Source: an uncultured candidatus Porisulfidus sp. (GTDB taxonomy: Bacteria > Pseudomonadota > Gammaproteobacteria > Poriferisulfidales > Poriferisulfidaceae). From it: a stretch of 64,000 nt of DNA. Under the pieces are notes generated by a model, which was given only the letters and a program-made list of their open reading frames with translations, had not been told where the DNA came from and did not search any database. Both the position numbers and the translations under genes were made by a program. Of the stretch, positions 4,447 through 42,663 are shown piece after piece. The stretch is from assembly GCA_965204575.1 (NCBI GenBank), contig OZ241993.1, forward strand, positions 1-64,000, in the 5' to 3' direction. Position 1 is the first letter of the stretch. Every line of letters begins with the position of its first letter.

Positions 4447-4455
4447 ATTTCTAAT
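4447..4455 (+). other. Putative recombination site ATTT-CT-AAT, porin copy 1
   Basis: tATTTCTAATTGC; porin homology stops here. Confidence 0.6.
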
Positions 4456-6364
4456 TGCTTTGGCCCTGGCGGCGGCCCCGTTCGCAGCCCAAGCCGAAAC
4501 ATGGAACATATACGGCTGGCAGAACTATTCCTGGGAGTTCGTGGACGAAAAAAACAGTGGTCGCAGTTACGATCGAATTTCCGGAAACGCGGCCAACATC
4601 GGCTTCAGTGCCAACGTGGACACCGGCATGAACGGCATCCACGTCACTCTCCAGTGCGAGTCATGGACGCTCCACAATCACTGGGATGGTCAGGGTGGCT
4701 GGTGCACCCGCAACTCCAAGATCGGCCTGTCTCATCCCCAGATGGGCGAGATCATGTTTGCCACCTGGCTGCTGCCCTACAACGAGGGCGTGGCGCAGTG
4801 GATCGACCCGTTCTACGACGCGGGCGGGGACTCGCATACCAGCATCATGGGTTCGGTCGGTGGCTCTACCTGGTATCATTCTCCTGGCGACTGGAACAAT
4901 CGTTCCGACCCGGACCGACATCCCGACTATGCTACCGGTGTAGACACCGGCTTCAACCGTCGTCAGCAGGAGATCATCCAGTATTGGTCGCCGAACTGGA
5001 ACGGCTTCGTGTTCCGCTTTGCCTGGACTGCAGGATATGAAGATGAACAGCCGTGGGGAAGGAATAATGCCAAACTGGACCCGGTGATTCGCTCGTCCAG
5101 CCTGGCATACACCAACGGCCCATTGTGGTTGGCGGTGGCCTGGCAGGATCACGAGGACTGGACCGCTAGTCGGCAAAAAATTCGCGGAAAAATGGACGGT
5201 TCGGACGCGGAGAGCCTGCGCGTGGCGGGCCGCTACATCATGGACATGGGTGATGGCATGAGCGTTCAGATCTCGGCGATGTGGGAGACCCTGGAGTACG
5301 AGTTCAACGGCGTGACCAGCGTCGATGAAGTAATGGGAGCTTTCTATCTTGGTTCTTTCACCTCCACCTACGACCTGTATCACGACGGGAGCAAGATTGT
5401 CGGGACTCCGGCGGTTCCGGGTACTCCGGCTATGCAGGCCGAGGTCGACGAGAACGACGTCAAGGCTCAGAAGACCCTTGATCTTGTGCGTAAGTTGTTC
5501 TACAACCCAGACGCTACCAGCGAGGCCGCTCCTTATACACTCAAAACCGGTGTCGAGGGAACCGCGTGGGGTGATGTCACTACCCTTCTAGCGGCGGCCG
5601 GCTTTGCTCCGGCGGACGATCCCTTGACGGCGGCGGACGAAAGCAAGGCCGCGGGCAGTTGTGCTGCCACTACTCCCTCGACGTGTACTGACCTTAATCT
5701 CAACGTCTTGGCGGATACTGATACCGCTACTGCCGGGCAGCAGAATGTGCTTAAGGCTGCGATCGAGGCTCTGAACAACGCCCGCGACACGGTTCCGGAT
5801 GACAATAACGATGCGACAACCGAGGACGCAGGCATACAGCCTCCGAACTTGGACGTGGCTGTCGGCCAAACTGGCGCTGGCACTGTAGCTCAGAGAAACG
5901 CCCAGGCCCAATACGACCTTTTGGTCGAGATGGCTACAGCGGCTGCTGAGAAAAAAGCCGGGATGACAGAGGCTGTACCGGCCAAACCCGCAGTCAGCGC
6001 AGCTGCTAACAGAGCTGCAATGACTATGGGCGAGAACGTCAAGATCGAGCGCGACGCCTGGATGGTGTCCGGCAAGATCAAGTTCGGCGGTCCCATCGAC
6101 TTCCGCTTCTCCTACATGGACGCGGACGATCTTGAGGTCTCCTGCGCATCCTGCTCGGGCGACTGGGACGAGACCGCGGCCGACGCCTTCAACGTGGGCA
6201 TCTTCTACACCATGCCGGCCGGCACGGAACTGCGCCTGACCTACTCCGAAGTCAACAACGACGACAACGGCGCTTACGGTCAGGGTGTCACCGGTACCGG
6301 GATCGCCTCACCGGGCAATGAAATCGAAATGTTCGCAGTGGGCATCGTGCACTGGTTCGACTAA
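4448..6364 (+). CDS. Porin copy 1, silent cassette (no ATG/RBS/n-region) with variable central insertion
   Basis: IYG N-terminal strand, YWSPNWNGF, C-terminal GIVHWFD; frame begins FLIALALAAAPFAAQA with no Met-Lys-Lys or SD. Confidence 0.85.
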   Translation, partial: FLIALALAAAPFAAQAETWNIYGWQNYSWEFVDEKNSGRSYDRISGNAANIGFSANVDTGMNGIHVTLQCESWTLHNHWDGQGGWCTRNSKIGLSHPQMGEIMFATWLLPYNEGVAQWIDPFYDAGGDSHTSIMGSVGGSTWYHSPGDWNNRSDPDRHPDYATGVDTGFNRRQQEIIQYWSPNWNGFVFRFAWTAGYEDEQPWGRNNAKLDPVIRSSSLAYTNGPLWLAVAWQDHEDWTASRQKIRGKMDGSDAESLRVAGRYIMDMGDGMSVQISAMWETLEYEFNGVTSVDEVMGAFYLGSFTSTYDLYHDGSKIVGTPAVPGTPAMQAEVDENDVKAQKTLDLVRKLFYNPDATSEAAPYTLKTGVEGTAWGDVTTLLAAAGFAPADDPLTAADESKAAGSCAATTPSTCTDLNLNVLADTDTATAGQQNVLKAAIEALNNARDTVPDDNNDATTEDAGIQPPNLDVAVGQTGAGTVAQRNAQAQYDLLVEMATAAAEKKAGMTEAVPAKPAVSAAANRAAMTMGENVKIERDAWMVSGKIKFGGPIDFRFSYMDADDLEVSCASCSGDWDETAADAFNVGIFYTMPAGTELRLTYSEVNNDDNGAYGQGVTGTGIASPGNEIEMFAVGIVHWFD

Positions 6365-13517: not shown

Positions 13518-13546
13518 CTTTGTAAGGTGTGCCTTGGCTGACTGGA

Positions 13547-15469
13547 TTAGTCGAACCAGTGCACGATGCCCACTGCGAACATTTCAATTTCTAAACCTGC
13601 CTTTCCAAGCCCAGTGCCAGAAATGCCCTGACCGTAGGTTCCGTTGTCGTCGTTGTTGACTTCGGAGTAGGTCAGGCGCAGTTCCGTGCCGGCCGGCATG
13701 GTGTAGAAGATGCCCACGTTGAAGGCGTCGGCCGCAGTCTCGTCCCAGTCGCCCGAGCAGGATGCGCAGGAGACCTCGAGGTCGTCCGCGTCCATGTAGG
13801 AGAAGCGGAAGTCGATGGGACCGCCCATCTTGATCTTGCCGGACACCATCCAGGCGTCGCGCTCGATCTTGACGTTCTGGCCCATAGTCATTGCAGCTCT
13901 GTTAGCAGCTGCGCTGACTGCGGGTTTGGCCGCTACGACCGGTGTCTTCCCAGCTTTGGCCTCAGCAGCATCTGTAGCTGCAGCGACCAGCGCCAGGTAC
14001 GCGACGTGAGCGTCTCTCTCATCCTGAGAACCGCCTGCAGTACCGTCACCGACAGCCGCAGTCAGATCCGGCGGCTGTACGCCTGCGTCTTCAGTTGTCG
14101 CATCGTTGTTGTCATCATCAACCGTGTCACGGGCATTATTCAACGCCGTGATCGAAGCCATGAGAGCTGTGCCGGTAGCACCTTCAGTGAGCACACTTGT
14201 GCCCCCGTTGCCTGCAACCGGATTGCCTTCAGCGTCTACGCCTTCATCCGCTTCGGTAGCAGGGTTGTCAGAGGTCGGTGGGACATAGTTAGGCAAAGAT
14301 GTGAGACCAGTAGGACATCCATTGGCATTATCGCCAGTCACGGCAGAGTTGTCATCGTCCCAACAGTTGGGGAACACCGTTCTCAGCAGGTCGATGGTCT
14401 TCTGCGCCTTGACGTCGTCCTCGTCAACCGGGACCTGCTCGCCTCCGCTCGCCGGAACCGCCGGAGTCATGCCGATGACTTCACCCGCACTATCCAGCAA
14501 GCTGTAGGAGGAACCGAAGTTGGAGTAGCCGAACGCAGTCATGGCCGCATCGACGTTGGTCACGCCGTTGAACTCGTACTCCAGGGTCTCCCACATCGCC
14601 GAGATCTGAACGCTCATGCCGCCGCCCATGTCCATGATGTAGCGGCCGGCCACGCGCAGGCTCTCCGCGTCCGAGGTCTCCATCTGGCCGACGGAAGCCG
14701 CGGTCCAGTCCTCGTGGTCCTGCCAGGTCACCGCCGCCCACACTGGGCCGTTGGTGTAGGCCAGGCTTGAGGAGCGGATCACCGGATCAGTGTCCTTGCC
14801 TGAGTCTGCCCCATACGAGGTTCCACCGTCATCGCGGTTACCGACGGTCCACGCGAAGCGGAACACGAAGCCGTTCCAGTTCGGCGACCAGTACTGGACG
14901 ATGCCTTCCTGGCGACGATTGAAGCCCGTGTCGTCGCCTGCCCCCGCGTAGTTGAACTCATCCCCAGCATAACCGGTGCCCGGCCCCGAGGCGGATGCCT
15001 GGAAGTCGAAGTCGCCGGTGTTGTAGAAGATGGTGCGGGCGCCGACCGAGCCCATGATGCTGGTATGCGATTCCGAGCCCGCGTCGTAGAACGGGTCCAC
15101 CCACTGCGCCACGCCCTCGTTGTAGGGCAACAGCCAGGTGGCCAGCATGATCTCGCCCATCTGCGGATGGGACAGGCCGATCTTGGAGTTGCGGTTGCAC
15201 CAGCCGGTGCCGCCCGCGAAGTGGTTCACGTACATGAACTGCTCGCACTGGACGTTGACCGAGAGGTCGTTGAAGCCGGTGGGCACGCTTGCGCGGAAGC
15301 CGATGTGGGCGGCCGCTCCCTCTATGCGGTCGTAACTGCGGTCAAAACCCGCCGCCTGCTCATCCACGAATTGCCATGAATGGTTCTGCCAACCATAAAT
15401 GTTCCATGTTTCGGCTTGTGCGGCAAACGGTGCTACAATCAAAGCCAAAGCAATTAGAAATGGTTTTTT
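13547..15469 (-). CDS. Porin copy 2, silent cassette (TAA in place of start codon)
   Basis: Minus strand TAA AAA AAA CCA TTT CTA ATT GCT TTG; same conserved barrel segments; ends GIVHWFD. Confidence 0.85.
   Translation of the reverse strand, partial: KKPFLIALALIVAPFAAQAETWNIYGWQNHSWQFVDEQAAGFDRSYDRIEGAAAHIGFRASVPTGFNDLSVNVQCEQFMYVNHFAGGTGWCNRNSKIGLSHPQMGEIMLATWLLPYNEGVAQWVDPFYDAGSESHTSIMGSVGARTIFYNTGDFDFQASASGPGTGYAGDEFNYAGAGDDTGFNRRQEGIVQYWSPNWNGFVFRFAWTVGNRDDGGTSYGADSGKDTDPVIRSSSLAYTNGPVWAAVTWQDHEDWTAASVGQMETSDAESLRVAGRYIMDMGGGMSVQISAMWETLEYEFNGVTNVDAAMTAFGYSNFGSSYSLLDSAGEVIGMTPAVPASGGEQVPVDEDDVKAQKTIDLLRTVFPNCWDDDNSAVTGDNANGCPTGLTSLPNYVPPTSDNPATEADEGVDAEGNPVAGNGGTSVLTEGATGTALMASITALNNARDTVDDDNNDATTEDAGVQPPDLTAAVGDGTAGGSQDERDAHVAYLALVAAATDAAEAKAGKTPVVAAKPAVSAAANRAAMTMGQNVKIERDAWMVSGKIKMGGPIDFRFSYMDADDLEVSCASCSGDWDETAADAFNVGIFYTMPAGTELRLTYSEVNNDDNGTYGQGISGTGLGKAGLEIEMFAVGIVHWFD
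13623..14773. repeat. 1151-bp inverted repeat with 22097-23247
   Basis: By eye identical except one SNP (VDEDD vs VDDDD); alternate-frame ORF translations agree. Confidence 0.85.
15453..15461 (-). other. Putative recombination site, porin copy 2
   Basis: Minus strand CATTTCTAATTGC, 13/13 match to the predicted RNA guides. Confidence 0.65.
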
Positions 15470-15539
15470 TTACTTTCGACAGTCTTGAAAACCCTTCGAA
15501 AAGGCTCTGGCGGTCCCGTATACTGGACTTCCAGCCGGG

Positions 15540-16463
15540 ATGGTCTGCTGTCGCTCTGTGTCTGACCCCGCACACCTTATAAAGTTCAGTCGAGCACGAT
15601 TGAGCGGCCGGCAGATTTCGGAACTGTTGGGATTGTGCAAGGGTCTGATCGCCGACGGGCGAATCACCCAGAGTGAAGCGGAATCGCTTTACGCTTGGTT
15701 GATAGATCAGGAACAATCAGGGCTCCCTCTTGTCCAGACCTTGCAGGCGCGGGTCGGGCAAATGCTCGGAGACGGTGTTCTGGATGCCGATGAAAGTGCG
15801 GAGCTGATGCGGTTGATTCGCGCCCTGATCGACCACCGCGCGGAAGCGGGAATCCCTTTGAGCCGTCGCGGCATGCGGACCAACAGGTTGGACGATTACC
15901 AGGTTTCTGCGTTGCTGGGGCTATGCCGGGGTCTGATCGCCGACGGCAAAATCAATCAGAGCGAGGCGGATGCGCTCCACACTTGGCTGGCGGCCCACGA
16001 AGAGACGGCAGAGAATCCGGTGATGGCGACGTTTAAGGAGAAATTGAAGGATTTTTCCCACGAAGAGACTAAAAACAGCAGTAAAAACATAGAGCTGTTG
16101 AAGCTGCTCGATGGGCTGGTTGGAGGCAAGACGGAAGTCGGGGAATGCCTTCGTGCCACAACCTTATGGCTGGACGACCCACCGCCGGAAGTCCAGTTCG
16201 AAGATCGAAAGTTCTGCCTGACCGGCAAGTTTTCCCACGGCAGGCGCCGGCAGTGCGAGGATGAAATTCGAGCCCGCGGGGGAAGCTGCCAGCAATCCCC
16301 GGCAAAGACGACGGACTACTTGGTGATCGGATCCTACGCCGAAGGCACCTGGATTCAGTCCGCGTACGGGCGCAAGATCGAAAAGGCCGTGGCGCTGCGT
16401 GCCAGCGGTCTGCCCGTTCGGATCATCTCCGAGACACACTGGCTTGCAGGCCTGCGGCAATAA
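15540..16463 (+). CDS. BRCT-domain protein with duplicated TerB-like N-terminal helical domain
   Basis: Two LLGLCxGLIADGxIxQSEA repeats; C-terminal FCLTGKF...TDYLVIG...YGRKIEKA...IISETHW; start uncertain. Confidence 0.8.
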   Translation: MVCCRSVSDPAHLIKFSRARLSGRQISELLGLCKGLIADGRITQSEAESLYAWLIDQEQSGLPLVQTLQARVGQMLGDGVLDADESAELMRLIRALIDHRAEAGIPLSRRGMRTNRLDDYQVSALLGLCRGLIADGKINQSEADALHTWLAAHEETAENPVMATFKEKLKDFSHEETKNSSKNIELLKLLDGLVGGKTEVGECLRATTLWLDDPPPEVQFEDRKFCLTGKFSHGRRRQCEDEIRARGGSCQQSPAKTTDYLVIGSYAEGTWIQSAYGRKIEKAVALRASGLPVRIISETHWLAGLRQ

Positions 16464-16619
16464 TCTTGGGATCTGTACAGGTTCACAGAATACGAGACAG
16501 GACCAGGTCTTGTTCGACATACAACGGATTTCGCCAAGCCACCGTGGCTCCCTCAATCATCACTCGTTAAAAATCGCGAGAATTATGTAGCAAAATCCCC
16601 AAGCGCGGATATAGGCAGC

Positions 16620-16820
16620 TTATTTCCAAACATTAAAAGCAAGGATTCCCAAACCGATTACAGTCGCAATTACCCAAGCCCCGATCTTTATCAAGGTATC
16701 TTTAACCCACTCTCTTATAGCCGTATGTTTGGCGTTTTCTTCCAGAACACCGACCCGTTCATGTATGTCTTTTTTTCTGGCGTATTCTGAAACGCCTTGG
16801 CGTTTTTCCCGCGGAGCCAT
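16620..16820 (-). CDS. Small protein with C-terminal transmembrane helix
   Basis: 66 aa, charged N-terminus then IGAWVIATVIGLGILAF; 2 bp from upstream ORF. Confidence 0.55.
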   Translation of the reverse strand: MAPREKRQGVSEYARKKDIHERVGVLEENAKHTAIREWVKDTLIKIGAWVIATVIGLGILAFNVWK

Positions 16821-16822
16821 AA

Positions 16823-17083
16823 TCAGTCAAGCCAATCCCACAACTTGCCGTCAAAGAAGCCGTAATAGGTATGGTTTATCTTGATTACAACGCCGTTCTT
16901 GGGGTTGTCGCTATCAAGGATACCTAGTTTCAACGCGACTATTTCAGCCACCAATTCCGTGCGGACCAGCAAGGTTTCCTTGCCGAGCCGGTAGCTGTCC
17001 TCAAACAATTCCTCGGCCACAGATTGAACATCTGTGTCCACAGAATAAACGACGTAAACCCGCTTTTCTGCTTCATCTGGCAT
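16823..17083 (-). CDS. Hypothetical 86-aa protein
   Basis: Compact alpha/beta pattern ending YYG...LWDWLD; operon-like with 16620-16820. Confidence 0.6.
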   Translation of the reverse strand: MPDEAEKRVYVVYSVDTDVQSVAEELFEDSYRLGKETLLVRTELVAEIVALKLGILDSDNPKNGVVIKINHTYYGFFDGKLWDWLD

Positions 17084-17129
17084 AGTGCAATCTTATCATG
17101 TCGACCTGTCAATTTCCTTGCGGATTTTG

Positions 17130-17969
17130 CTACATAATCCCCAAAATCGCAGGGCAGTCCAGATCTATGTCATGGTTAACCGTTAATTTCCACTTGGGAT
17201 TATCTATGTACGGTCTGGGATGAATTTCATCAAACCAGGAAACGGGAGGCCTGAGGAGCTTTACTGATCTTGCCTCTTTGGCAAAAGGCTCCAGCACCTC
17301 GGCTTGGCGTGCGTGCCCAACGAAATCCAGTAGGTAGCCGAGCCGGCGCACTGTGGAATTTTCGTAGTTTGAAGCGACATCCGCCAACTTCTTGGGTTCA
17401 GCCTTCATGCCCATGTCTTGGATGATTTGGGCCAAATTGTCAAAGCCGGCAACTTTTCGGAGATAACGGGCTCAATCCAGCAAGGTCACTTCTACGCCGC
17501 TCGCTTTGGCTTTTTCGCCCAAGCGACCTTGAACCGGCATGAGCCAATCCGGTCGATTTGTTTTCTCGAACATCGATGGAGCCTGAAAGACGAACCGGAC
17601 CTGGTTTCCATCGATGTCGAAGTCCCGCAGCTGCTTTGGCACGATGATCTGAAAGACCATGGGTGCCTGATGCGAAGCTCCGTGACAGCTGGCTGCGCCG
17701 AGCAAGCCAATCCGGTAATCCAGGCCTATATGCTTCATAAGCGGGTCGACCCAGTCGAGCACATGAGGAACTTGACCTCTGTCTTCCGGGCGTAGGATCA
17801 GGTAGAAACCACGGCGGGGAGACGCCAATCGACGCTTTTTGAGCAACCGACCCGCCGCCGCGATAAACGCCGAGGATTTCATGTCCAGCACTTTCAATGC
17901 CTCTTTCTTTGAGAAAAAAGCATGCCCTTGTGCTAGACGATCATCAAGGTATTGGCTCAATGCGGCCAT
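17130..17969 (-). pseudogene. Type IV TA antitoxin AbiEi with in-frame nonsense codon
   Basis: RRGFYLI, GLLGAASCHGASHQ, TLLD-TGA(17472-4)-ARYL..., RRLGYLLD continue in one frame. Confidence 0.75.
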
Positions 17970-18037
17970 CCCCCAATCATATACGAAAATAAGGGAATGT
18001 AGCGAAATCCGCAAGGGTGGTTAGTTGGGGGGCAAGG

Positions 18038-18256
18038 CTAATGAGAAGTCAATTCGATTCCAAGATAGCTTTCGACAATCCGCACTTTTTCTGGTGAATA
18101 CATTCCGTTTTAATCGGGGTCTGGCACCTGTATCACACGGTGATTTTCATTTTGCCAGAAGGTGGCAGTTTCCGTTCTCTCTTCTGATTTTTTGTAACCC
18201 ATAGCTGCCACCTTCTGATGTAGTTCTTCCTTCGACATCCAGCGATCATAGGTCAT
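18038..18256 (-). pseudogene. HicA-like toxin with internal stop
   Basis: MTYDRWMSKEELHQKVAAMGY...FWQNENHRVIQVPDPD-TAA(18110-2)-NGMYSPEKVRIVESYLGI; ATGA overlap with upstream gene. Confidence 0.5.
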
Positions 18257-18564
18257 GCTGGCACCAGACAAAATTCTTTATCTGACAAAACAAAAGAATC
18301 CTCTCTGATTTCTTGCTCGACCGTAGAATGATCCTCGGCCATGTGTGCCAGAAAATCATCCAGGGAAATAGCGGTTTCCACATTAAATTCACGTCCGGTC
18401 TTGATTTTCAGTATTTTTTTTATCGACGGAACCAGTTGACGATAAACTGTTGCTGCGTCTTCATTGGCCACCAGCAGCCCGTCGAGATCATCGGAAGTGA
18501 ATATGTGATGATCGTGCTCGAAGCGGTAAAGCACCTTTATCACCGCAACGGTTGATGACGACAT
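18253..18564 (-). CDS. HicB/DUF1902-like antitoxin
   Basis: IFTSDDLDGLLVA motif; SD AGGAG before ATG 18564. Confidence 0.6.
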   Translation of the reverse strand: MSSSTVAVIKVLYRFEHDHHIFTSDDLDGLLVANEDAATVYRQLVPSIKKILKIKTGREFNVETAISLDDFLAHMAEDHSTVEQEIREDSFVLSDKEFCLVPA

Positions 18565-18829
18565 TTTCTCTCTCCTGTCAATTAACGCCGAACACGCCGC
18601 ACTGCAAAGCGACCTGGTAAGCGGTTGAATGGCATGGTCTTTGTCCCGATTAATAAGGGACAATTCATGTTATCACAGGGCGGAAAAATTGAACAAGCGA
18701 CGGCGGCTGGTGACGGCGGCTGGCCAGGAAATAGTCAGCCAGACCTTGCAGATTTTGCTACATATTCCCAAGATATCTGCATATGATCGGGGAAGGAGCA
18801 ATAAGCTTAAGCTTTATTTGCACCTAGAA

Positions 18830-19050
18830 CCGGGCGCAGAAATCAGGATACCCCAACCCTTTGCAACAGCAGACCATCCAAGACTCGGGTTGGTTACCGA
18901 TGCGGTCTGTAGGAGTCGCGGAGTCAAGCCTTTGTCTAATTGCATGGATCACGATGCCAGACATGCCGCTTGGGCGTGAACGGCTTCGCACCGATGTAGA
19001 AATGCCAAGGGTTCTCCGACAGACTGGAGCATCCTGGTTTCTGCGGCCGG
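18830..19050 (-). ncRNA. Putative bridge RNA with guides matching the porin junction site
   Basis: 26-bp closing stem (19025-19050/18830-18855, 24 pairs including two G-U on the minus strand); guides CATTTCTA (19004-18997) and GCAATTAGA (18943-18935) flank an internal hairpin. Confidence 0.7.
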
Positions 19051-19066
19051 ACTTTCAATCAAGTAA

Positions 19067-20239
19067 TCAAGCCTCCTGCGTTACGCGGCTGATGCGGGAT
19101 TTCTCATGGCAAACGATGTCCCAGACAAATCCCGTCAATTCCCGTGCGATCGCGACGCAAACCACTTTCTGGTTCTTGCCTTCCGCGATTAGTTTCCGAT
19201 ACCGCCCGCACAGTCGTTTTTGCGCCTTCCACGCGATGGCCTGGGCATAGGCGGAAGCGCCTTCCGCCTTGCGGTTCATGTAGGCGGTCTGGCGGGCTGG
19301 AAACCGGTAGCACCAGGCCGACTCGACCAGCACCTGCCGGGCGTGGCGGTTCCCTGCCTGCGTGACGCCGCCGGTACGGCGGTGTGCTCCGGAACTGTAG
19401 ACACAAGGCACCAGCCCCAGATAACCCATCAACTGGTTGGGAGACCCGAAGCGGCTGATGTCGCCCAGTTCGGACAGCAGCGTGACCGCGGACAACTGGT
19501 CGAACCCGCGCAACGCCATCAGGCTGTTGGCCAGCGGCGCCCAGGACCAACCCCGCAGGACCTGGCTCAGTTTTTCATCCAGGTCGATCATGCGCGAGGA
19601 CGAAAGACGCACGGCCGCAATGTACTCGTCTCGGACTTCGGCCTGATAATCATATGAAAAATCAAGGCTTTCCAGCCATTCGAGATGTTTCTGCGTCCAG
19701 CGCTTCCGGTTGGTCGGCCAATGATGCCCGTGGCGCAGCACGAAGGCATTGAGCTGCTGGCGCAACTTCTGCTGTTGCGCCTTGAAGTCGGCGCGACAGC
19801 GGCACAGGTCGCGGACCGCTTCCTGTTCCTGGTCCGGCACCCAGACCTCGACCAACTCCCCGGCGCGCAGAAGCCGTGCCAGGCGCAACGCGTCCCTGCG
19901 GTCGGTCTTGATCTTTTCATTGCGCGGCGGGGCCACGACCTGGCAGTCCATGCCCATCGCGGTCAGGCTCTGGTACAGGGTGTACCCGCAAGGCCCGGCC
20001 TCGTAGCAAAGCAGGAAGGTTTCTTTTTCCGAATACAGCCGGTCGACGAGTTTGGCGACCGCTTTTTTCGTATTCGGTATGGTGCCCCAGGACTCGGGGG
20101 CTTCCCGACCCGCGTAGGCGACGGCGACGGCGATGCTGTCCTTGTGGACATCGAGTCCGACGTAGCCTGCGTAGGGTTTGGCGTGAGCCGAGTGGTCGGA
20201 AGGAGGGGTTCCGGCGGTTTCGGGGGGCTGTTGTTCCAT
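19067..20239 (-). CDS. IS110-family (Piv/DEDD) recombinase
   Basis: YVGLDVHK, CYEAGPCG, KTDRRDA, GYLGLVP..YSSG, AIAREL; SD GGAG before ATG 20239. Confidence 0.93.
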   Translation of the reverse strand: MEQQPPETAGTPPSDHSAHAKPYAGYVGLDVHKDSIAVAVAYAGREAPESWGTIPNTKKAVAKLVDRLYSEKETFLLCYEAGPCGYTLYQSLTAMGMDCQVVAPPRNEKIKTDRRDALRLARLLRAGELVEVWVPDQEQEAVRDLCRCRADFKAQQQKLRQQLNAFVLRHGHHWPTNRKRWTQKHLEWLESLDFSYDYQAEVRDEYIAAVRLSSSRMIDLDEKLSQVLRGWSWAPLANSLMALRGFDQLSAVTLLSELGDISRFGSPNQLMGYLGLVPCVYSSGAHRRTGGVTQAGNRHARQVLVESAWCYRFPARQTAYMNRKAEGASAYAQAIAWKAQKRLCGRYRKLIAEGKNQKVVCVAIARELTGFVWDIVCHEKSRISRVTQEA

Positions 20240-20484
20240 TGTTATCTCTCCTTGAAATCGGGGTGTATGAATAAACACTGGGAGCGGGTCCGAGTGCAGT
20301 AGTCTGGGCCACGATGAGAGACAACTCTCACGAAATGTTGATGGTCGTCTTCGGTTTATGGCCAACACATGATTTAGTCCTATTTCAAAGAGGTCAGTTC
20401 AGGGGAAATCGGAAAGAGGGGCAAGAGTTGACTTCCATTCAGACTAGTCGTATAATCTAGTCTAAATTTTGAGGGGAGGCAACA

Positions 20485-20727
20485 ATGAAAACGATCGGAG
20501 CCTATGAAGCCAAGACGCATCTGCCCAGGCTGCTTGACCGTGTGGCGCACGGCGAGCATCTGACTATCACCAAACACGGCAAACCCGTTGCCCAACTGGT
20601 GCCTGTCACCACAAGGGAAGAGCGCGCACAGGAAGCGATTGACCGCATCACCGAACTTCGCCGGCACATCAAGTTGGCGCCATTGGCAGAATTGATGGCC
20701 ATGACTCACGAAGGGCACCGCTATTGA
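20485..20727 (+). CDS. Phd/YefM antitoxin
   Basis: IGAYEAKTHLPRLLDRV...ITKHGKPVAQL; palindrome AGACTAG-N9-CTAGTCT at 20441-20463. Confidence 0.9.
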   Translation: MKTIGAYEAKTHLPRLLDRVAHGEHLTITKHGKPVAQLVPVTTREERAQEAIDRITELRRHIKLAPLAELMAMTHEGHRY

Positions 20728-21137
20728 TCGTCGTAGATAACTCCGTTTTCCTCGCCTGGTGCGTGGGCGAGGAAGAGGAAAGTGGCTTGGTTGCGGCCGA
20801 GACGGTCCTGCGCGTTGCCAATGAAGGCGGCGTCGCGCCGCACATATGGTGGTATGAATTCCGCAATGCGCTTCTGATGAATGAGCGCCGTGGACGCATT
20901 TCATCCGAGCAGACGTCAAGAATCCTGGCTGCCGGCCTTGCACTGAACGTAGAGGTTGACGAAAACCACGATGAAACACAACTCCTCGATTTGGCCCGCC
21001 GGTTCGACTTGACTGTCTATGATGCCGCATACTTGGAGGTTGCCTTCCGGCGTAGCCTGCCTCTGGCGACTTTTGACCGCCGCCTGAGCAAGGCGGCAGA
21101 AGCCGTCGGGGTTGCTGCAGTCCACCACGAGGTTTAA
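20724..21137 (+). CDS. vapC: VapC PIN-domain toxin
   Basis: IVVDNSV, YEFRNAL, LTVYDAAYLE, LATFD. Confidence 0.88.
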   Translation: MIVVDNSVFLAWCVGEEEESGLVAAETVLRVANEGGVAPHIWWYEFRNALLMNERRGRISSEQTSRILAAGLALNVEVDENHDETQLLDLARRFDLTVYDAAYLEVAFRRSLPLATFDRRLSKAAEAVGVAAVHHEV

Positions 21138-21160
21138 GAGTTCCGAGAGGTGAAAAAAAG

Positions 21161-21452
21161 CCATTTCTAATCGCCACGGCTTGGGTTTCGGTTCCGCTCG
21201 GGGTCCCAGTTGGGGTGGTTGTCATGAGCCGTTGTTTTTTAGAAACGGAAAAGGCTGGGCATCGGATTTCCCGTTGATTCTCTGTAGTTGTAAAAAAACA
21301 ACATTGGGAAGATTTGACAATTCTGCAAAGGCATAGACAATTCGCACTTGAATATGGCAGTTTTGCCACATTCCCGTGGGGAATGATCACCCTGCGGAAT
21401 TAGTAATATTTTTAGGAGTCCTAAAAAATGAAAAAACCATTTCTAATCGCCA
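21161..21452 (+). other. 276-bp porin promoter/RBS/ATG module bounded by 16-bp direct repeats
   Basis: CCATTTCTAATCGCCA at 21161-21176 and 21437-21452; CT cores at 21167 and 21443. Confidence 0.7.
21314..21418 (+). promoter_or_regulatory. Porin promoter, hairpinned 5' UTR and RBS
   Basis: TTGACA 21314-9, GACAAT 21336-41 (16-bp spacer), hairpins TGGCA/TGCCA and CATTCCC/GGGAATG, AGGAG 21414-8. Confidence 0.6.
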
Positions 21453-23323
21453 TGGCTTTGATTGTAGCACCGTTCGGTGCGCAAGCAGAGACGTGGAACA
21501 TTTATGGTTGGCAGAATCATTCTTGGGAGTTTGTGGATATCGACGGCGGACGCAGCTTCGACCGGATCCAGTCCAACGCGGGCAACATCGGATTCGCGGC
21601 GAGCGTGCCCACCGGCTTCAACGACCTCTCGGTCAACGTCCAGTGCGAGCAGTTCATGTACGTGAACCACTTCGCGGGCGGCACCGGCTGGTGCAACCGC
21701 AACTCCAAGATCGGCCTGTCTCACCCGCAGATGGGTGAGCTGATGCTGGCCACCTGGCTGCTCCCTTACAACGAGGGCGTGGCGCAGTGGGTCGACCCGT
21801 TCTATGACGCTGGCGCGGACTCGCATACCAGCATCATGGGATCGGTCGGTGCCAATACCATCTTCTACAACACTGGTGACTTCGACTTCCAGGCATCCGG
21901 CTCGAGTCCGGGCTCTGCTCAGACCGAGTTCAACTACCAGGTTGGCGGCTACGACACGGGCTTCAACCGTCGTCAGGAGAACATCATCCAGTACTGGTCT
22001 CCGAACTGGAACGGCTTCGTGTTCCGCTTCGCGTGGACCGCTGGCAACCGCGATGAGACCCCTCACATGGGAGGGGAAATCGACCCGGTAATCCGTTCCT
22101 CAAGCCTGGCCTACACCAACGGCCCAGTGTGGGCGGCGGTGACCTGGCAGGACCACGAGGACTGGACCGCGGCTTCCGTCGGCCAGATGGAGACCTCGGA
22201 CGCGGAGAGCCTGCGCGTGGCCGGCCGCTACATCATGGACATGGGCGGCGGCATGAGCGTTCAGATCTCGGCGATGTGGGAGACCCTGGAGTACGAGTTC
22301 AACGGCGTGACCAACGTCGATGCGGCCATGACTGCGTTCGGCTACTCCAACTTCGGTTCCTCCTACAGCTTGCTGGATAGTGCGGGTGAAGTCATCGGCA
22401 TGACTCCGGCGGTTCCGGCGAGCGGAGGCGAGCAGGTCCCGGTTGACGACGACGACGTCAAGGCGCAGAAGACCATCGACCTGCTGAGAACGGTGTTCCC
22501 CAACTGTTGGGACGATGACAACTCTGCCGTGACTGGCGATAATGCCAATGGATGTCCTACTGGTCTCACATCTTTGCCTAACTATGTCCCACCGACCTCT
22601 GACAACCCTGCTACCGAAGCGGATGAAGGCGTAGACGCTGAAGGCAATCCGGTTGCAGGCAACGGGGGCACAAGTGTGCTCACTGAAGGTGCTACCGGCA
22701 CAGCTCTCATGGCTTCGATCACGGCGTTGAATAATGCCCGTGACACGGTTGATGATGACAACAACGATGCGACAACTGAAGACGCAGGCGTACAGCCGCC
22801 GGATCTGACTGCGGCTGTCGGTGACGGTACTGCAGGCGGTTCTCAGGATGAGAGAGACGCTCACGTCGCGTACCTGGCGCTGGTCGCTGCAGCTACAGAT
22901 GCTGCTGAGGCCAAAGCTGGGAAGACACCGGTCGTAGCGGCCAAACCCGCAGTCAGCGCAGCTGCTAACAGAGCTGCAATGACTATGGGCCAGAACGTCA
23001 AGATCGAGCGCGACGCCTGGATGGTGTCCGGCAAGATCAAGATGGGCGGTCCCATCGACTTCCGCTTCTCCTACATGGACGCGGACGACCTCGAGGTCTC
23101 CTGCGCATCCTGCTCGGGCGACTGGGACGAGACTGCGGCCGACGCCTTCAACGTGGGCATCTTCTACACCATGCCGGCCGGCACGGAACTGCGCCTGACC
23201 TACTCCGAAGTCAACAACGACGACAACGGAACCTACGGTCAGGGCATCTCCGGTACCGGACTGGGTTCGCCTGGTGTGGAGATCGAGATGTTCGCAGTCG
23301 GTATCGTGCACTGGTTCGACTAA
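21428..23323 (+). CDS. Porin copy 3, the only complete (expression-site) copy
   Basis: Full signal peptide MKKPFLIAMALIVAPFGAQA, SD, intact frame to GIVHWFD. Confidence 0.92.
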   Translation: MKKPFLIAMALIVAPFGAQAETWNIYGWQNHSWEFVDIDGGRSFDRIQSNAGNIGFAASVPTGFNDLSVNVQCEQFMYVNHFAGGTGWCNRNSKIGLSHPQMGELMLATWLLPYNEGVAQWVDPFYDAGADSHTSIMGSVGANTIFYNTGDFDFQASGSSPGSAQTEFNYQVGGYDTGFNRRQENIIQYWSPNWNGFVFRFAWTAGNRDETPHMGGEIDPVIRSSSLAYTNGPVWAAVTWQDHEDWTAASVGQMETSDAESLRVAGRYIMDMGGGMSVQISAMWETLEYEFNGVTNVDAAMTAFGYSNFGSSYSLLDSAGEVIGMTPAVPASGGEQVPVDDDDVKAQKTIDLLRTVFPNCWDDDNSAVTGDNANGCPTGLTSLPNYVPPTSDNPATEADEGVDAEGNPVAGNGGTSVLTEGATGTALMASITALNNARDTVDDDNNDATTEDAGVQPPDLTAAVGDGTAGGSQDERDAHVAYLALVAAATDAAEAKAGKTPVVAAKPAVSAAANRAAMTMGQNVKIERDAWMVSGKIKMGGPIDFRFSYMDADDLEVSCASCSGDWDETAADAFNVGIFYTMPAGTELRLTYSEVNNDDNGTYGQGISGTGLGSPGVEIEMFAVGIVHWFD

Positions 23324-23331
23324 GACAGTCT

Positions 23332-23472
23332 AGCCAAGGCACACCTTGCAAAGCAGGCGCCCTCCGGGGCGCCTGTTTTTTTGCAGATGAAGCAGTCATC
23401 CAACTGGCGAGGAGGAGGCTGACAGACAGTGTATGATGCCCGGTATCATTGAGAAAATGTTATGGATCGCCG
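23332..23472 (+). repeat. 141-bp direct repeat of 40025-40165 (terminator, promoter and first 11 nt of the AAA gene)
   Basis: One mismatch; ends ATGGATCGCCG. Confidence 0.85.
23354..23382 (+). terminator. Porin intrinsic terminator
   Basis: CAGGCGCCC-TCCG-GGGCGCCTG-T7. Confidence 0.85.
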
Positions 23473-24284
23473 AGTGGTTACTTCTCCGATTCCGGTGGTA
23501 CCAGCGAATCAAGCAATACCAATAATTGAAGGAGTCCTTATCGATGTCAAACCAAAACTGAATTTCCCGTTTCTGTGAGTGTGAATAAAAGAAGAGCCGT
23601 CGTACAATAATCCCCAGAAAATCTCTGGAAAGATTCTGGTCCGTCAAACTCACCGACAAGCGGTTTTTTTAGTACCCCCATGAAAGAAGACCAGCACATC
23701 GAATGGAAGGCATCCTGGCGTGATGAATACCTGAAATGGTTGTGCGGTTTTGCCAATGCACAGGGCGGCGTGCTGGAAGTTGGCCGCAATGATAAGGGAA
23801 AGGTGGTGGGCCTTGAAGATGCCACTCGGCTGATGGAGGAATTGCCGAACAGGTTGCGCGATCTGCTTGGGATCGTAGCGGACATTGATCTCCAGAAGGA
23901 GAGCGGAAAACCGTATTTACGGATTTCTATTGCACCGTATCCGATACCGATCAGTTACAAGGGCGAATATCACTATCGCAGTGGCAGCACCAAGCAGGTT
24001 CTCAAGGGTGTAGCCCTGAGCCGCTTCCTCCTGAACAAGATGGGCAAATGCTGGGATTCGGTGCCAGTGCCGAACGCCGGTTTTGATGATTTGGACACCA
24101 AAGCTCTGGACAATTTCCGTAGGCGAGCGATACGCGCCAAGCGTTTGGAAATGGTATGAAAGCCGCCTGGCCTTGGCGACCGGATTACTGGGAGAGGGTG
24201 AATCCTCCAGTGAGTCCGGACGGCATCTAGGGTGCCAAAGGTGGACAATAGGCGACTTCAACGAGCCAGACTGGAGGATTCGAG

Positions 24285-25313
24285 ATGGAGTATAGCAATA
24301 AACCGGTGGTCGGCGTGGATACCGCGAAGCACGTGTTCCAACTGCACTGGGTGGAGGCCGGCGGCGAACTGGTCGATCTGAAGCTGTCGCGGCAGAAGTT
24401 CGTCGAGCACTTTGCCAACCGGGCGCCCTGCCGGATCGGGTTGGAAGCCTGCGGCGGTTCGCAGGAGTGGGCGCGCCGGTTCCGGCAGATGGGACACGAG
24501 GTGACCGTGTTGCCGGCGCAGTCGGTGCGGGCGTTCGTCACCGGCAACAAGAGCGACGTGCAGGATGCGCGGGCGATCTGGACGGCGGTGCAGCATCCGC
24601 GGTCGAAGTCGGTGGCGATCAAGGACGAGGAGCAGCAGATGATTCTGGGGCTGCACCGCCTGCGGCAGCAGCAGGTGAAGTTCCGCACGGCGACGATCAA
24701 TAGCCTGCGCGGCCTGCTGGGCGAATACGGGGAGGTGATGCCGCAAGGACGGGCCGGGCTGAGCCGGGAGATCGAAGGCGTGCTGGACCGGCTGGCTGGG
24801 CGAGTCCCGGAGATGGGTCGGGAAGAGTTATCCGCGCAGTGGCGTCGCGTCCACGAGCACGACGAGGCGATTGCGCGGGTCGAGCGGAAGCTGGAGGCAT
24901 GGTGCACAAGCCATGAGGCTTGCCGGCGACTGCGGGAGGTGCCGGGCATCGGCCTGCTGACCGCGACCGCCCTGGTCGCCGCCGCGGGAGACGCGCGGGC
25001 GTTCCGCAACGCTCGGGAGTTCGCGGCCTGGCTGGGGCTGGTGCCGCGCCACAGCGGCACTGGCGGGAAGACCCGCATTCTCGGCATCAGCAAGCGGGGC
25101 GACCGCTACCTGCGCACGCTGCTGATCCATGGCGCCCGGTCACTGCTGGCCAACGGCCGGGAGCTGCCCGAGTGGGTCGAGAAGATCAAGCGGAACAAGC
25201 CGTTCAACGTCGCCGCGGTGGCAGTCGCCAACCGGCAGGCGAGAATCGCCTGGGCCTTGCTGGCCCATGGCCGCAAGTACCAGAAAGATTACGTCTGTCC
25301 GCCGCGCGGCTGA
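24285..25313 (+). CDS. IS110/IS1111 transposase
   Basis: VGVDTAKHVFQ, LEACGG, NKSDVQDA, AAWLGLVP..SGTGGK, GDRYLR. Confidence 0.95.
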   Translation: MEYSNKPVVGVDTAKHVFQLHWVEAGGELVDLKLSRQKFVEHFANRAPCRIGLEACGGSQEWARRFRQMGHEVTVLPAQSVRAFVTGNKSDVQDARAIWTAVQHPRSKSVAIKDEEQQMILGLHRLRQQQVKFRTATINSLRGLLGEYGEVMPQGRAGLSREIEGVLDRLAGRVPEMGREELSAQWRRVHEHDEAIARVERKLEAWCTSHEACRRLREVPGIGLLTATALVAAAGDARAFRNAREFAAWLGLVPRHSGTGGKTRILGISKRGDRYLRTLLIHGARSLLANGRELPEWVEKIKRNKPFNVAAVAVANRQARIAWALLAHGRKYQKDYVCPPRG

Positions 25314-25379
25314 CGGCTCCCGACACTGACTTCACCAGAGGAGGTGGCACGAAACAGGTTGCGCAAGGCATTCCCGATT

Positions 25380-25560
25380 GTGATGGCAAGCAGGACCAGA
25401 CCTGACGACCCGTCAGCCTGGCAGTCTCTTTGAGCTACGAGCTCGTTTTGGAAATGAGGACCGGGTCGGCAGATTCCATCAGGGCCAGTGGGCGAAGCTT
25501 CGGCGGGACCCGCATCAACAGGTCGAATATAAAACTGCAATCTGGCCGCCCCCAACACGG
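25380..25560 (+). ncRNA. Putative seek/bridge RNA of the IS1111 element (limits approximate)
   Basis: CTCTT (25426-30) and TTTGGAA (25447-53) match the reconstructed target; CCAT (25476-9) and ATATAAAA (25527-34) match the circle junction. Confidence 0.6.
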
Positions 25561-26959
25561 TCTGGAGAGTAACTTGCGTTACAGGCGGCCTTCATATAAA
25601 GAGCATGCGCTTGAGGATAATGACCTCGATTTGGTGAAACAGTTGAAACTGGTCGATGACCCATACCTCAAACGTTCCGCCATCCTCCTGTTTCATCCCG
25701 AGCCTGATCGTTTCTTCACAGGTGCGAGAGTCAAGATTGGCTACTTTGAGAGCGAGGCCGAAGTGCTTTATCACGACGAAGTGGATGGCGATTTGCTCTC
25801 CCAGGTCCGCAGGACAATGGATTTGTTGCTGACCAAATACCTGAAAGCGGTGATCAGTTACGAGGGCATCCAGCGTATTGAAACCTACCCGGTACCTGAT
25901 GATGCATTACGGGAAGCCGTGCTGAATGCTGTCATCCACCGAAATTACGGAGTGCCAGCACCGATTCAGATCCGAGTCTACGCTGATCGGTTGTGGATAT
26001 GGAATCCAGGTGAGTTGCCCGCAGATTGGTCTTTGGAGACTCTGCTTAGCCCGCATTCTTCGCAACCTTTCAATCCAGATATTGCCAGCGTTTTTTTCTG
26101 GGCAGGTGAGATCGAGTCTTGGGGACGCGGGATTCAGCGTATTTTCGATGCCTGTCGACAGGAAAGGATGCCGGATCCACACCTGGAGGTGGCTCCGGGA
26201 GGATTGTGGGTCAAGTTTCAATTTTCGAACACTTACCTTCGCGCCCTTCACCTTATCCCGAAAGAAACCACACAAGAAGATGCACAAAAAACGGTGCAGG
26301 AAAATATCCTTGCCCAATTACGCAAAAACCCAGGAATAGCCCAAAAGGTGTTGGCAGACCACCTCGGGATCTCCTATGGAAGCGTCAGGTATCATATTGG
26401 AAAACTTAAAGAATATGGACACATTCGTCGTGTCGGTTCAGAAAGGAAAGGTCTCTGGGAAGTCGTTGATGGAAAATCGGAAGGAGGGCTTAAAAAACAG
26501 GCAGAAAACAGGCAGAAAGAAATTCTTTCCTTGCTATGCAGGAACCCGGAAATGACTCAAAAAGCGTTGGCAGAGCATGTTGGGATCACCTATGGAAGCG
26601 CTAGGTATCATATTGAAAAACTTAAAGAATACGGATACATTCGTCGTGTGGGCTCAGAGAGGAAAGGTCTCTGGGAAGTCGTTGATGATAAATCGGAAGG
26701 AGGGCTTAAAAAACAGGCAGAAAACAGGCAGAAAAAATCCGCCCAAGAAAACAACCCAGAAACAACCCAGAGGGAATTCTGCCGCATGAAACCTAAGCAT
26801 CATCCCGGAAACCTGTAGCAGGAACTCAGGACATTACTGTCCACCACTCAAGATATAATGTGTTCGGTTCCGCGAGGCCCGTGTACGGGAGCCAATTGAA
26901 AGTAGGCAGCCCACCTGCTTGACGGTTTTTCCCGCGATTGAGCAACGGAGATCACCCAA

Positions 26960-36782: not shown

Positions 36783-36791
36783 ATTTCTAAT
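36783..36791 (+). other. Putative recombination site, porin copy 4
   Basis: tATTTCTAATCGC; homology to copy 3 starts here. Confidence 0.6.
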
Positions 36792-36847
36792 CGCCATGGC
36801 TTTGATTGTAGCACCGTTCGGTGCGCAAGCAGAGACGTGGAACATTT

Positions 36848-38195
36848 GGGTCTTCACGGAATTGTGTGGAACGGAGGTCTCGGATACAGGTCGAGTCCGC
36901 CCAAGTGAAAGTAGATGGCTTCACGGAAGCGCTCGCGGCTGCGGTAGCCGCAGGCTTGGCGTTTGATCCACTGCACTTTCGCGTTGATGGATTCCGACAG
37001 GGCATTGCTGATGCCCAGCACGGCGGCGTTCAGGATCTCTTCCACATGCTTCCAGATCGTCTCCGCCGCCTTGATCACCGGGGCCAGCCGCGAGCGTTTC
37101 GCCGCCTGATGCCAGGCTTCCCAGGCGTAGTAGGCCAGGGTCCGGTCGCGCAACGCCCAGATCTCCGCCGCCCGTTCCTTCAGGATCCAGGCCCGGGCCA
37201 CCTTCAGGTCCTCCTTGCGTAACGCTTCCAGACGCTGGCGCCGGGCCGGGCCCATCCGCTCCTCGGTCATCAGCCAGTCGAAACGGGTGCCCGCCAGGCG
37301 GGCATCGCCTTGCGCCAGCAACCTCTTGTGCTCCGCCCGGCGCACCTGGTCCACCGCCTGGTTGAGCAGGCTCACCACATGGAAGCGGTCGATGCAGATG
37401 TCGGCCTGGGTGTACTTCAGGGTCGCCGCGATGTAGGCCGGCGCCAGATCCATCGCGGCCGTCTCAACCTGCGCGCAGGCGGCGTCGCCCAACTCTCTGA
37501 AAAACGGCTCCACCGCTGCCTGATCCTTGCGGTCTCCCACATACAGCACCACCCCCTTGCGCCCGGACGCCGGCTTCTGATCGACCACGATCGAGACATA
37601 TTCATGCCGCTTCTGGAACGAGGTCTCGTCGATGCCGATCCGCTTCGGTGCCTGCGGCCCGCGTCGCGCCAATCCGCGCCGCACCGCCCGCGAGCGGATG
37701 CCGTCCGCCTGATGCCAGCTCAGCCCCCACTTCTGCGCCACCGCCCGCAGCGGCATCGCCAGCAGGTCCTCGATCACCTCCGTCTCGAAGCGCATCGTGA
37801 AACGACCGTGGGACTCCGCCCACGGCACCGCGATCTGCCGAATCCCGTGCTCCGGGCAGTTCGCCCGCGGCACCTCGGCCCGCAAGGTCGTGCGCCAACC
37901 CATCAAATCCAGGTCCCGCCACTCCCGCGCCTTCGTGTCGTGCCGCTTGCACAAGGTCCCGCATTCCGGACACGGCACCAGGCTCTTCGCCTGATAGGCC
38001 AACTCGATCGTGACGCGCCCCGGGCTGCGATCCTCGCCTCCTTCCCGACAGGACACCGAGACCACCTCCCACGGCGGATGCAGAAACATCAGCATCTCGC
38101 AAAACTTGTTCACTGCTTCCATCAGACCACACTCCAGACTAAAACGCGGAAGCATTATCCCTGACCCTCTATTCCACACAAAACCGTGATGCGCC
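36848..38195 (-). mobile_element. ISL3-family element, 1348 bp
   Basis: 24-bp imperfect terminal IRs (19/24) and 8-bp TSD GAACATTT at 36840-7 and 38196-203. Confidence 0.93.
36854..38122 (-). CDS. ISL3 transposase
   Basis: CPECG zinc finger, RIGIDETS, AMDL, DRFHV, SESINAKV...GYRS. Confidence 0.95.
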   Translation of the reverse strand: MEAVNKFCEMLMFLHPPWEVVSVSCREGGEDRSPGRVTIELAYQAKSLVPCPECGTLCKRHDTKAREWRDLDLMGWRTTLRAEVPRANCPEHGIRQIAVPWAESHGRFTMRFETEVIEDLLAMPLRAVAQKWGLSWHQADGIRSRAVRRGLARRGPQAPKRIGIDETSFQKRHEYVSIVVDQKPASGRKGVVLYVGDRKDQAAVEPFFRELGDAACAQVETAAMDLAPAYIAATLKYTQADICIDRFHVVSLLNQAVDQVRRAEHKRLLAQGDARLAGTRFDWLMTEERMGPARRQRLEALRKEDLKVARAWILKERAAEIWALRDRTLAYYAWEAWHQAAKRSRLAPVIKAAETIWKHVEEILNAAVLGISNALSESINAKVQWIKRQACGYRSRERFREAIYFHLGGLDLYPRPPFHTIP

Positions 38196-42226: not shown

Positions 42227-42605
42227 TGGCTTTGGCCTCTTCCCCGTCGACAAGATTTTCCGGCACGTAGATCCGATATGCCGAGTGGACCCTGCCGCCC
42301 TTCACCAAGGCACGCGGCCCGGAACCGAAATCGATTTTCGATGCATCGAGATGCTTGCGCCACGGATGTCGATGCCTGTCCGAGAAAACGAAGAACAGCC
42401 GGCGCACTTTCACGCTCCGGCAACGCATAAGCAGCGCCATCAATTGCTTGGGCCGCAGGGTTACGAGTCCCTCGAAGATCTTGTCCAGGTTGTCGAAACC
42501 CGCATGGTGTGGCAGATCATCAAGTGCTTCGAGGATGGCGCGCTCTGGAGACGATGCCTTGACAGGCCAATGCCACACGCTCACCGTACGGCTGATTCCC
42601 TCCAC
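42219..42605 (-). pseudogene. AbiEi antitoxin C-terminal fragment
   Basis: SSPERAILE, LRPK...CRSVKVRRLF, DFGSGPRAL; 5' part missing. Confidence 0.8.
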
Positions 42606-42663
42606 GACAGTCTAGCTAAGGCACACCACACAAAGCAGGCGCCCTTCGGGGCGTCTGTCTTTT
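42606..42663 (+). terminator. Orphan porin 3' UTR and terminator with no porin upstream
   Basis: GACAGTCTAGCTAAGGCACACC..CAAAGCAGGCGCCCTTCGGGGCG matches the porin 3' ends. Confidence 0.8.

Follow-up and report, generated by a model that had tools for sequence, protein, structure and literature searches.

Porin cassettes and the expression region

The window, a stretch of 64,000 nucleotides from the 1.82-Mb single-contig genome of an uncultured candidatus Porisulfidus species (G000; contig OZ241993.1, positions 1 to 64,000), carries a gene of about 630 aa in five paralogous copies, and these are all the copies of the genome. Copy 1 (4447–6364, plus strand) is silent, has 'atatt' as its left arm and adjoins mlaA. 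Copy 2 (13547–15469, minus strand) is likewise silent; its site lies at 15453–15461 on the minus strand with the core CT at 15456–15457, next to a dead left arm of the form AGT-A8-CC. Copy 3 (21428–23323, plus strand, 631 aa) alone among the cassettes of the window combines a promoter with an in-frame start. Copy 4 (36783–40017, plus strand) is silent and interrupted at 36848–38195 by an ISL3 element, of which the genome holds two further copies with 100% identical transposase. Copy 5 (43457–45219, plus strand) is silent and falls into two reading frames. Copies 1, 3, 4 and 5 are thus alike in orientation and copy 2 is opposite. Homology among the five paralogues begins at ATTTCTAAT. Rightward of this motif copies 3 and 4 are 100% identical over 65 + 300 nt, the right arm of copy 4 being the same as that of copy 3, and leftward of it they are unrelated. 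The 3'-terminal 1256 nt of copies 2 and 3 (13540–14795 and 22075–23330) are 98% identical in inverted orientation, compared to 86–88% for the 5' parts, which suggests a recent conversion between the cassettes that flank the presumed invertible segment described below. The 3'UTR and terminator of a cassette recur as orphans at about 42597–42663, with no cassette in front of them, and represent the debris of a lost copy.

The gene received no Pfam or NCBIfam name, and a phmmer search against PDB sequences gave no match. A homologue of 444 aa from outside the genus, with the C-terminal sequence ...GIVHAF, was assigned to Porin_4 porins in the ESM Atlas (features 0.98, structure TM 0.78). Inferred by way of this homologue, the fold of the cassette products would be that of porins with a long variable insert. 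The cassette family is multi-copy in all 15 other genomes of the genus, and the sequencing runs that contain the window come from sponge, coral and other marine metagenomes.

An earlier note, made from the letters of this stretch, had described a 276-bp 'jumping promoter' which relocates among the cassettes and is bounded by direct copies of the recombination site. Its account of the parts was borne out. The 16-mer CCATTTCTAATCGCCA is present in two exact copies on the plus strand, at 21161–21176 and 21437–21452, with a spacing of 276 bp; a search with up to three mismatches returned four matches, with 0.55 expected. CCATTTCTAAT occurs three times in the whole genome, namely in the upstream copy, the expression copy and copy 2, and ATTTCTAAT nine times (about 2.7 expected), six of these being the five cassettes and the upstream copy. 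Promoter, 5'UTR, ribosome binding site and ATG, which the pair of 16-mers was said to enclose, could all be located. The promoter has the form TTGACA-16-GACAAT at 21314–21341 (−35 at 21314–21319, −10 at 21336–21341) and belongs to a conserved stretch of promoter and 5'UTR at 21229–21427 (plus strand), in which AGGAG is found at 21414–21418. The proposed hairpins of the 5'UTR were recovered as two hairpins upon folding (fold z −3.4). The ATG at 21428 (plus strand) opens the expression arm ATGAAAAAACC, which with the expression site covers 21428–21452; here the core CT of the 16-mer lies at 21443–21444. The module 21177–21436 is present in one copy in the genome. As also stated before, the GTG at 21150 reads out of frame, the upstream copy runs on as a decayed signal-peptide sequence which reads PFLIATAWVSVPLGV in the cassette frame, and deletion of 21167–21442 would formally silence copy 3.

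A cassette relic upstream of the promoter

The upstream 16-mer is part of a lineage-specific cassette 5'-end fragment of 76 nt (21153–21228, plus strand), which consists of A7-G-CC, the site at 21161–21176 with its core CT at 21167–21168, and about 52 nt of decayed signal-peptide sequence. In an ungapped comparison of 21177–21228 with the signal sequence of copy 3 (21453–21504), 26 of 52 positions are identical, and 21 of 33 over the first 33. Counted rightward from ATTTCTAAT, 22 of 23 bases are still copy 3-like and the remainder is decayed. In other genomes the relic matched cassette 5' ends only, with 80% identity over 46 nt in G010 and 75% over 55 nt in G005.

In five other species the conserved promoter is immediately preceded by the motif GGAAAATTGTGAAG..AGAT, the place of which is taken by 21153–21228 in the window genome. 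In genome G008 and at locus L065, vapC lies directly before the promoter and the upstream site is absent. A second direct site with at most one mismatch was found in none of 13 other expression regions. When two mismatches were allowed over the 800 nt upstream of 14 expression sites, three matches appeared besides the window genome's own copy, with about 0.2 per region expected by chance; they lie on the minus strand of the window genome, on the plus strand of G010 at 277 nt and on the minus strand of L062, and the match in G010, at 9 of 11 positions, is at chance level. Homology between the relic and the vapC–promoter spacer of L065 was considered and rejected as not significant, 337 of 500 shuffles scoring as high.

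To the left and to the right of its core the relic resembles a cassette. Since a single conservative crossover alters one side only, the relic must have arisen in another way, probably as a non-reciprocal copy made by cassette-templated repair or conversion, or by insertion of a cassette and subsequent deletion of most of it. Other cassette debris in the window comprises the orphan 3'UTR and terminator, the IS-broken copy 4 and the out-of-frame copy 5.

The recombination site in related genomes

In six of the seven other genomes whose loci were compared, the cassettes diverge from their paralogues precisely 5' of (CC)ATTTCTAAT. One arm in each of these six genomes, or two in G013, is of the type AGGAG(TCC)...ATGA(A/G)AAAACC, that is AGGAG...ATGAAAAAACC; the remaining arms have lost the ATG or contain A5 for A6 with a frame shift (G009, G010). 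This pattern supports the view that one expression arm and several silent cassettes recombine at a site within the porin gene. Within the cassette sites, ATTTCTAAT is invariant in the 13 genomes which have the RNA candidate described below. Site-specific recombination would take place at ATTT-CT-AAT, in codons 4–6 of the porin genes, with the crossover presumably at the CT core. The dead arms at L034:13362 (G009) and L037:7912 (G010) keep the ATG, have A5 before CC and reach a TAA within the site, and in these arms the A-run could be an additional slippage switch.

A single-copy IS110-family recombinase

The gene at 19067–20239 (minus strand) encodes an IS110-family (DEDD) recombinase of 390 aa, counted from a conserved ATG. 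It matched PF01548 and PF02371, as is characteristic of RNA-guided recombinases of the IS110 family, and the model NF033542 'IS110 family RNA-guided transposase' with 234 bits (cut-off 140) over positions 1–342 of 343; phmmer against PDB sequences gave no match. Orthologues with 70–93% identity are found in 12 of the 15 other genomes of the genus. Outside the genus a match was obtained in one of 15 genomes (G024), with 32% identity and in five copies. The recombinase gene of the window is single-copy in its genome; the other IS110 and ISL3 genes of the window are not. It thus lacks the features of a mobile multi-copy element: there is one copy per genome, and the neighbours are the same in eight genomes. 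Single copy number and constant neighbours together point to a domesticated gene.

Enzymes of the XerC/D type and serine invertases were considered and rejected, as no candidate gene lies near the locus. The genome contains only two tyrosine recombinase genes (PF00589), at 489 kb and 891 kb and far from the window, and it has no serine recombinase gene. In G015 the recombinase gene and its RNA (L055:5433–6814) are located about 95 kb from the nearest porin cluster, a distance which implies that the enzyme can act in trans. A different IS110-family gene at 24285–25313 (plus strand) shares 24% identity with the domesticated recombinase (tblastn); it has an identical second copy at 714 kb and is an ordinary insertion sequence within a region of Schlafen and HTH genes.

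Two further loci lie near the recombinase gene. A BRCT-like gene (15540–16463, plus strand, 307 aa, weak BRCT match) is located beside the dead arm; it has internal 288-bp repeats, is kept beside the dead arm in at least nine genomes, and may encode an accessory factor. A vapB–vapC toxin-antitoxin pair (20485–21137, plus strand) is inserted between the recombinase gene and the promoter, where relatives have 0–3 pairs. In this gap no vapBC-type pair was found in G001, G003, G009, G010 and G013, one is present in the window genome, one decayed pair in G008, and three vapB-like matches in G007 (L051:4096–11311). The gap is a hotspot for insertions of vapBC-type toxin-antitoxin genes.

A candidate structured RNA with a site-matching loop

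A candidate structured non-coding RNA of about 216 nt (18832–19047, minus strand) begins 20 nt past the stop codon of the recombinase gene. BLAST detected it in 10 of the 15 other genomes of the genus, once per genome and always after the recombinase gene, and it was recognised by eye in G004 and G014, giving a total of 13 genomes. Its conservation is far above that of the flanks, with a mean column identity of 84% in 10 genomes. RNAalifold revealed a 24-bp closing stem and two arms, with 63 pairs and 98.2% of the cells paired. Changes on both sides were counted for 14 pairs, and none of 500 shuffles came to this number. Control alignments slid along the sequence gave at most five such pairs and 34–43% paired cells.

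The first arm contains an internal loop, the 5' strand of which, GGCAUUUCUA at 18997–19006, equals the top strand of the site, CATTTCTA, and the 3' strand of which, CAAUUAGACA at 18933–18942, is the reverse complement of TCTAATTG. Both halves of CCATTTCTAATTG are matched in this way, the core dinucleotide included. In the window the loop carries CAUUUCUA and AAUUAGA, which match the half-sites around the CT core. UUAGA is common to all 13 RNA-bearing genomes and CAUUUCUA to 12 of them, with AAUUUCUA in G013. In the second arm (alignment columns 130–194), which is structured as well, the loops are variable and match no site. Judged from this agreement between loop and site, the recombinase is probably guided by the candidate RNA encoded just downstream of its gene. 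The upstream site agrees with the guides at 8 of 9 positions on the left and 6 of 7 on the right, and the expression site at 7 of 9 and 6 of 7. Genome-wide, the best match to the left guide is the upstream site, and a perfect right half occurs in copies 1 and 2. By its guide match the upstream site would be a competent substrate; excision of the 276-bp piece is chemically plausible and was not seen in the contigs.

The stretch upstream of the recombinase gene (20240–20484) was rejected as a guide RNA; its conservation is patchy, its consensus fold is weak, and it has no invariant site-matching segment. An Rfam search of 15000–26000 with E values up to 1 returned one chance-level snoRNA match only. 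In G006 the recombinase gene and the RNA are absent, and a tyrosine recombinase gene (PF00589; L033:9460–10536) is found in the equivalent position, between divergent porin cassettes. The cassettes of this genome start at L033:6077, 9255, 10584 and 13650, have kept the ATG in four of four cases and share the junction AAAAAACGTCCCTAATCG. The different enzyme is accompanied by a different junction, and hence site and enzyme appear to have been exchanged together.

A segment in opposite orientations between species

The site cores of copies 2 and 3 delimit a segment of about 6 kb (15458–21442), which we infer to be the invertible unit and which is found in opposite orientations between species. 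Its genes include those of the recombinase, the BRCT-like protein, an AbiEi-like protein and vapBC; it also takes in the dead arm, the relic, the promoter and the guide-RNA candidate. Promoter and 5'UTR can be aligned from about 21229–21231 (CGTTGTTTTTT) to the ATG in G000, G001, G003, G007, G008 and G009, and both are recognisable also in G010, G013 and G015 as well as in four further contigs; in G013 the promoter was missed by BLAST and is visible in the alignment. In eight genomes (G000, G001, G003, G007, G008, G009, G010 and G013) the recombinase gene is located between two divergent cassette sites. Six of these eight show the order dead arm, BRCT-like gene, recombinase, 0–3 vapBC pairs, promoter and expression site. 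For G010, BLAST gave no match to the BRCT-like gene, and recombinase gene and expressed cassette have the same direction.

In G000, G001 and G008 the promoter is directed towards the flank with polyprenyl synthase and ppk; in G003 and G009 it is directed towards the one with amidase and cbbQ. As in an inversion of the Piv type, the sites lie at the 5' ends of the genes in opposite orientations, and the gene bodies are swapped on a fixed promoter. The two orientation states between species indicate that the promoter changes its cassette by inversion of the whole segment. Of the earlier proposal that the promoter relocates, one part therefore stands: the promoter switches its partner by inversion, the segment that bears it being turned towards opposite flanks from species to species. 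No support was found for the 276 bp as the moving unit. The promoter is tied to the recombinase gene on the 6-kb segment in eight genomes, and the upstream site is missing from the 13 other expression-site regions.

Taken as a mechanism, 21229–21438 with promoter, 5'UTR, ribosome binding site and ATG-A6-CC would be the ancestral fixed expression arm of a system of porin antigenic variation. Recombination at the porin sites would be carried out by the domesticated single-copy IS110-family recombinase, probably under RNA guidance. Promoter, recombinase gene and dead arm would share the 6-kb segment between two divergent cassettes, and inversion of this segment, or of larger stretches between opposite sites, would bring another cassette body to the promoter.

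Arrangements in population contigs

Arrangements within the population were examined in the Logan contigs of four public runs, which were used in place of raw reads and in which rare variants are dropped. Record 10 of run X18 crosses 15444–21468 and record 28 of run X20 crosses 18796–21468, both without interruption. Record 6 of run X1, from another study, covers 20159–21450 with 42 differences and 14 gap letters in about 1290 nt; indels were listed only at 20423 and 20769, and the strain is about 97% identical. The arrangement of vapBC, site and module hence recurs in the reference, X18, X20 and X1.

Excision of the module would create new 31-mers, and contigs of X18, X20 and X1 would therefore break at 21147–21176. 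No branch is present there in any of the three, that is, neither the excised circle nor the empty copy 3 site which the earlier note had envisaged was detected in the contigs of the four runs. Had the module been placed before copy 2, the contigs would break at 15453, and no such break was found; placement before other copies, likewise proposed, is not seen in the contigs of the four runs, and the module is single-copy in the genome. As far as the contigs show, the module is fixed at copy 3 and the upstream site is a scar, the outcome which the earlier note itself had named as contrary to its proposal. Loose ends at 21439–21503 are all explained by the reference copies 4 and 5 and the ISL3 element.

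The contigs of X18 and X20 break at 15444–15473, a 30-mer that is unique in the genome, and the loose end of X18 at this place has 12 letters equal to the right arm of copy 1. By the 31-mer expectation, such a break is what would be given by a minor form in which the left arm of copy 2 is joined at the site to the body of copy 1; this form would arise by inversion between the opposite copies 1 and 2, or by conversion. Recombination within the population is visible only in this copy 2–copy 1 junction, a minor form comparable to those that excision or relocation of the module would leave in the same contigs. A junction of the expression arm with copy 2 was not found in the population contigs, and the core inversion therefore rests on the comparison between species.

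In X20 the region 15200–21900 has loose ends at 17600, 17797, 20436 and 20796 as well as depth steps of 66, 16 and 32; both point to a second strain with different segment content. A copy 3-like contig of X20 differs at 23 of 292 positions. In X1 and X2 parts of the compared stretch have no contig cover.

Discussion

We consider it reasonably probable, at roughly 0.65, that the 276-bp stretch consists of a fixed expression arm and an inert or merely tolerated relic of 76 nt, and that the porins are shuffled by a domesticated, apparently RNA-guided IS110-type recombinase. This reading starts from the repeat and the cassette origin of the relic, from the conservation and linkage of the parts in related genomes, from the two orientation states, and from the RNA structure with its site-matching loop. 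The claim of a jumping promoter is probably wrong, and the upstream copy would be a scar beside a fixed arm. Several observations speak against the scar: judged by its guide match, the upstream site equals the expression site as a substrate, no feature of the sequence would prevent excision, and the preservation of 22 of 23 site-proximal bases next to decayed sequence could mean that the site is maintained. Against the part concerning RNA guidance stands the second arm of the RNA, which has no conserved guide-like loop, unlike the IS621 bridge RNA.

In terms of the IS110 family, a jumping promoter would be a 276-bp circle that is excised and inserted before any cassette, in either orientation. 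It would draw on direct and exact sites at both ends of the module, of which the upstream one is the best left-guide match of the genome. With IS621, sites in the same orientation lead to excision and opposite sites to inversion (PMC11208160, PMC11187229), and the ISPpu9 transposase, an IS110-family enzyme, forms minicircles of MITEPpu9/ssr9, a small transposase-less module with end-like sequences (PMC12288879). The common orientation of copies 1, 3, 4 and 5 is moreover awkward for a system that relies on inversion only. We nevertheless regard such a circle as improbable. The module is single-copy, the reference, X18, X20 and X1 share one arrangement with an unbranched upstream site, this site is absent from the 13 other expression regions, and the promoter keeps its linkage with the recombinase gene in eight genomes and lies behind vapC without the site in G008 and L065. 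The decay of the relic implies that the arrangement has been stable for some time. MITEPpu9/ssr9 differs in that circles and multiple copies were observed there, and the window module has one copy with neither circle nor empty site in the contigs. A variant which is highly doubtful sees in the 276 bp a non-autonomous mini-IS110, a bridge-RNA-guided 'promoter transposon' that would insert at the CT core of any cassette and would be recent in this lineage; if true, it would permit porin switching without inverting housekeeping genes.

The upstream site could also serve as an active inversion partner only. Recombination with copy 2 would then flip the part with recombinase and vapBC and leave the promoter unmoved, as a futile or rate-damping event. 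We find this rather unlikely. Its guide match makes the site competent, its orientation is opposite to that of copy 2, and it is well kept beside a decayed flank, but X18 and X20 contain no joint between the left arm of copy 2 and the relic, which would break the contigs at 15453 and not at 15444, and the upstream site is lineage-specific. That the duplication is an assembly artefact appears scarcely conceivable: the region is rich in repeats, with five paralogous genes and several insertion sequences, yet independent contigs cross it unbroken (X18 15444–21468, X20 18796–21468, X1 20159–21450).

With the fixed expression arm and whole-segment inversion as the preferred reading, the locus can be compared to known switching systems. 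The vsa, vsp and vpma shufflons of Mycoplasma have one promoter with an arm for start and signal peptide and silent genes without these, which are activated by site-specific inversion in the 5' coding end through tyrosine recombinases. At the window locus, in contrast, no tyrosine recombinase is present, and the relative G006 has one at the equivalent locus. In the pilin inversion of Moraxella by Piv, bodies of a surface-protein gene meet one fixed promoter and N-terminal coding end. Piv resembles the present system in that an IS110-related DEDD enzyme is used by the host for DNA inversion. The window differs in having several scattered cassettes in place of one two-state segment, and its recombinase gene lies inside the invertible segment. 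Piv belongs to the short branch (315–330 aa) with IS492 and IS621 (PMC11208160, PMC11187229); the length of 390 aa argues against a place of the window recombinase in this branch, and its domestication probably took place independently of Piv.

The closest mechanistic parallel is the bridge RNA or seekRNA of IS621 and IS110 elements (Durrant et al. 2024, Siddiquee et al. 2024). Both systems have a recombinase with DEDD and Tnp domains and an adjacent structured RNA; in the loop, the left half-site up to and including the CT core is matched by the 5' strand, which is identical to its top strand, and the right half-site, from the core onwards, by the 3' strand, which is complementary to it. In IS110-type RNAs the match to the bottom strand is placed 5' and that to the top strand 3' (PMC11208160, PMC11187229), an order that is also found in the RNA candidate of the window. 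Most members of the family have such RNAs upstream of the gene, and some have them downstream (PMC11208160, PMC11187229). Unlike the IS621 and IS110 elements, the recombinase of the window is single-copy, syntenic and not mobile, and its RNA sits downstream of the gene. Unlike in IS621, only one loop has conserved guides, and the partners are the 5' ends of host porin genes and not an element junction and a target. In the literature searched, neither such a domesticated IS110 system nor porin switching in Ca. Porisulfidus was found described.

The interest of the locus sits in the porin-shuffling system that surrounds the 276 bp, and the claim of a jumping promoter can now be tested with defined substrates. 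If our reading holds, a host-domesticated IS110-type recombinase with a guide RNA of single specificity drives antigenic variation of the major porin in an uncultured sponge symbiont, and bridge-RNA recombination would be linked to programmed shuffling of host genes. The locus would also represent a compact natural inversion system with a defined site of 9+7 nt. For the biology of the organism, the porin system would suggest selection on surface variation in a beneficial symbiosis.
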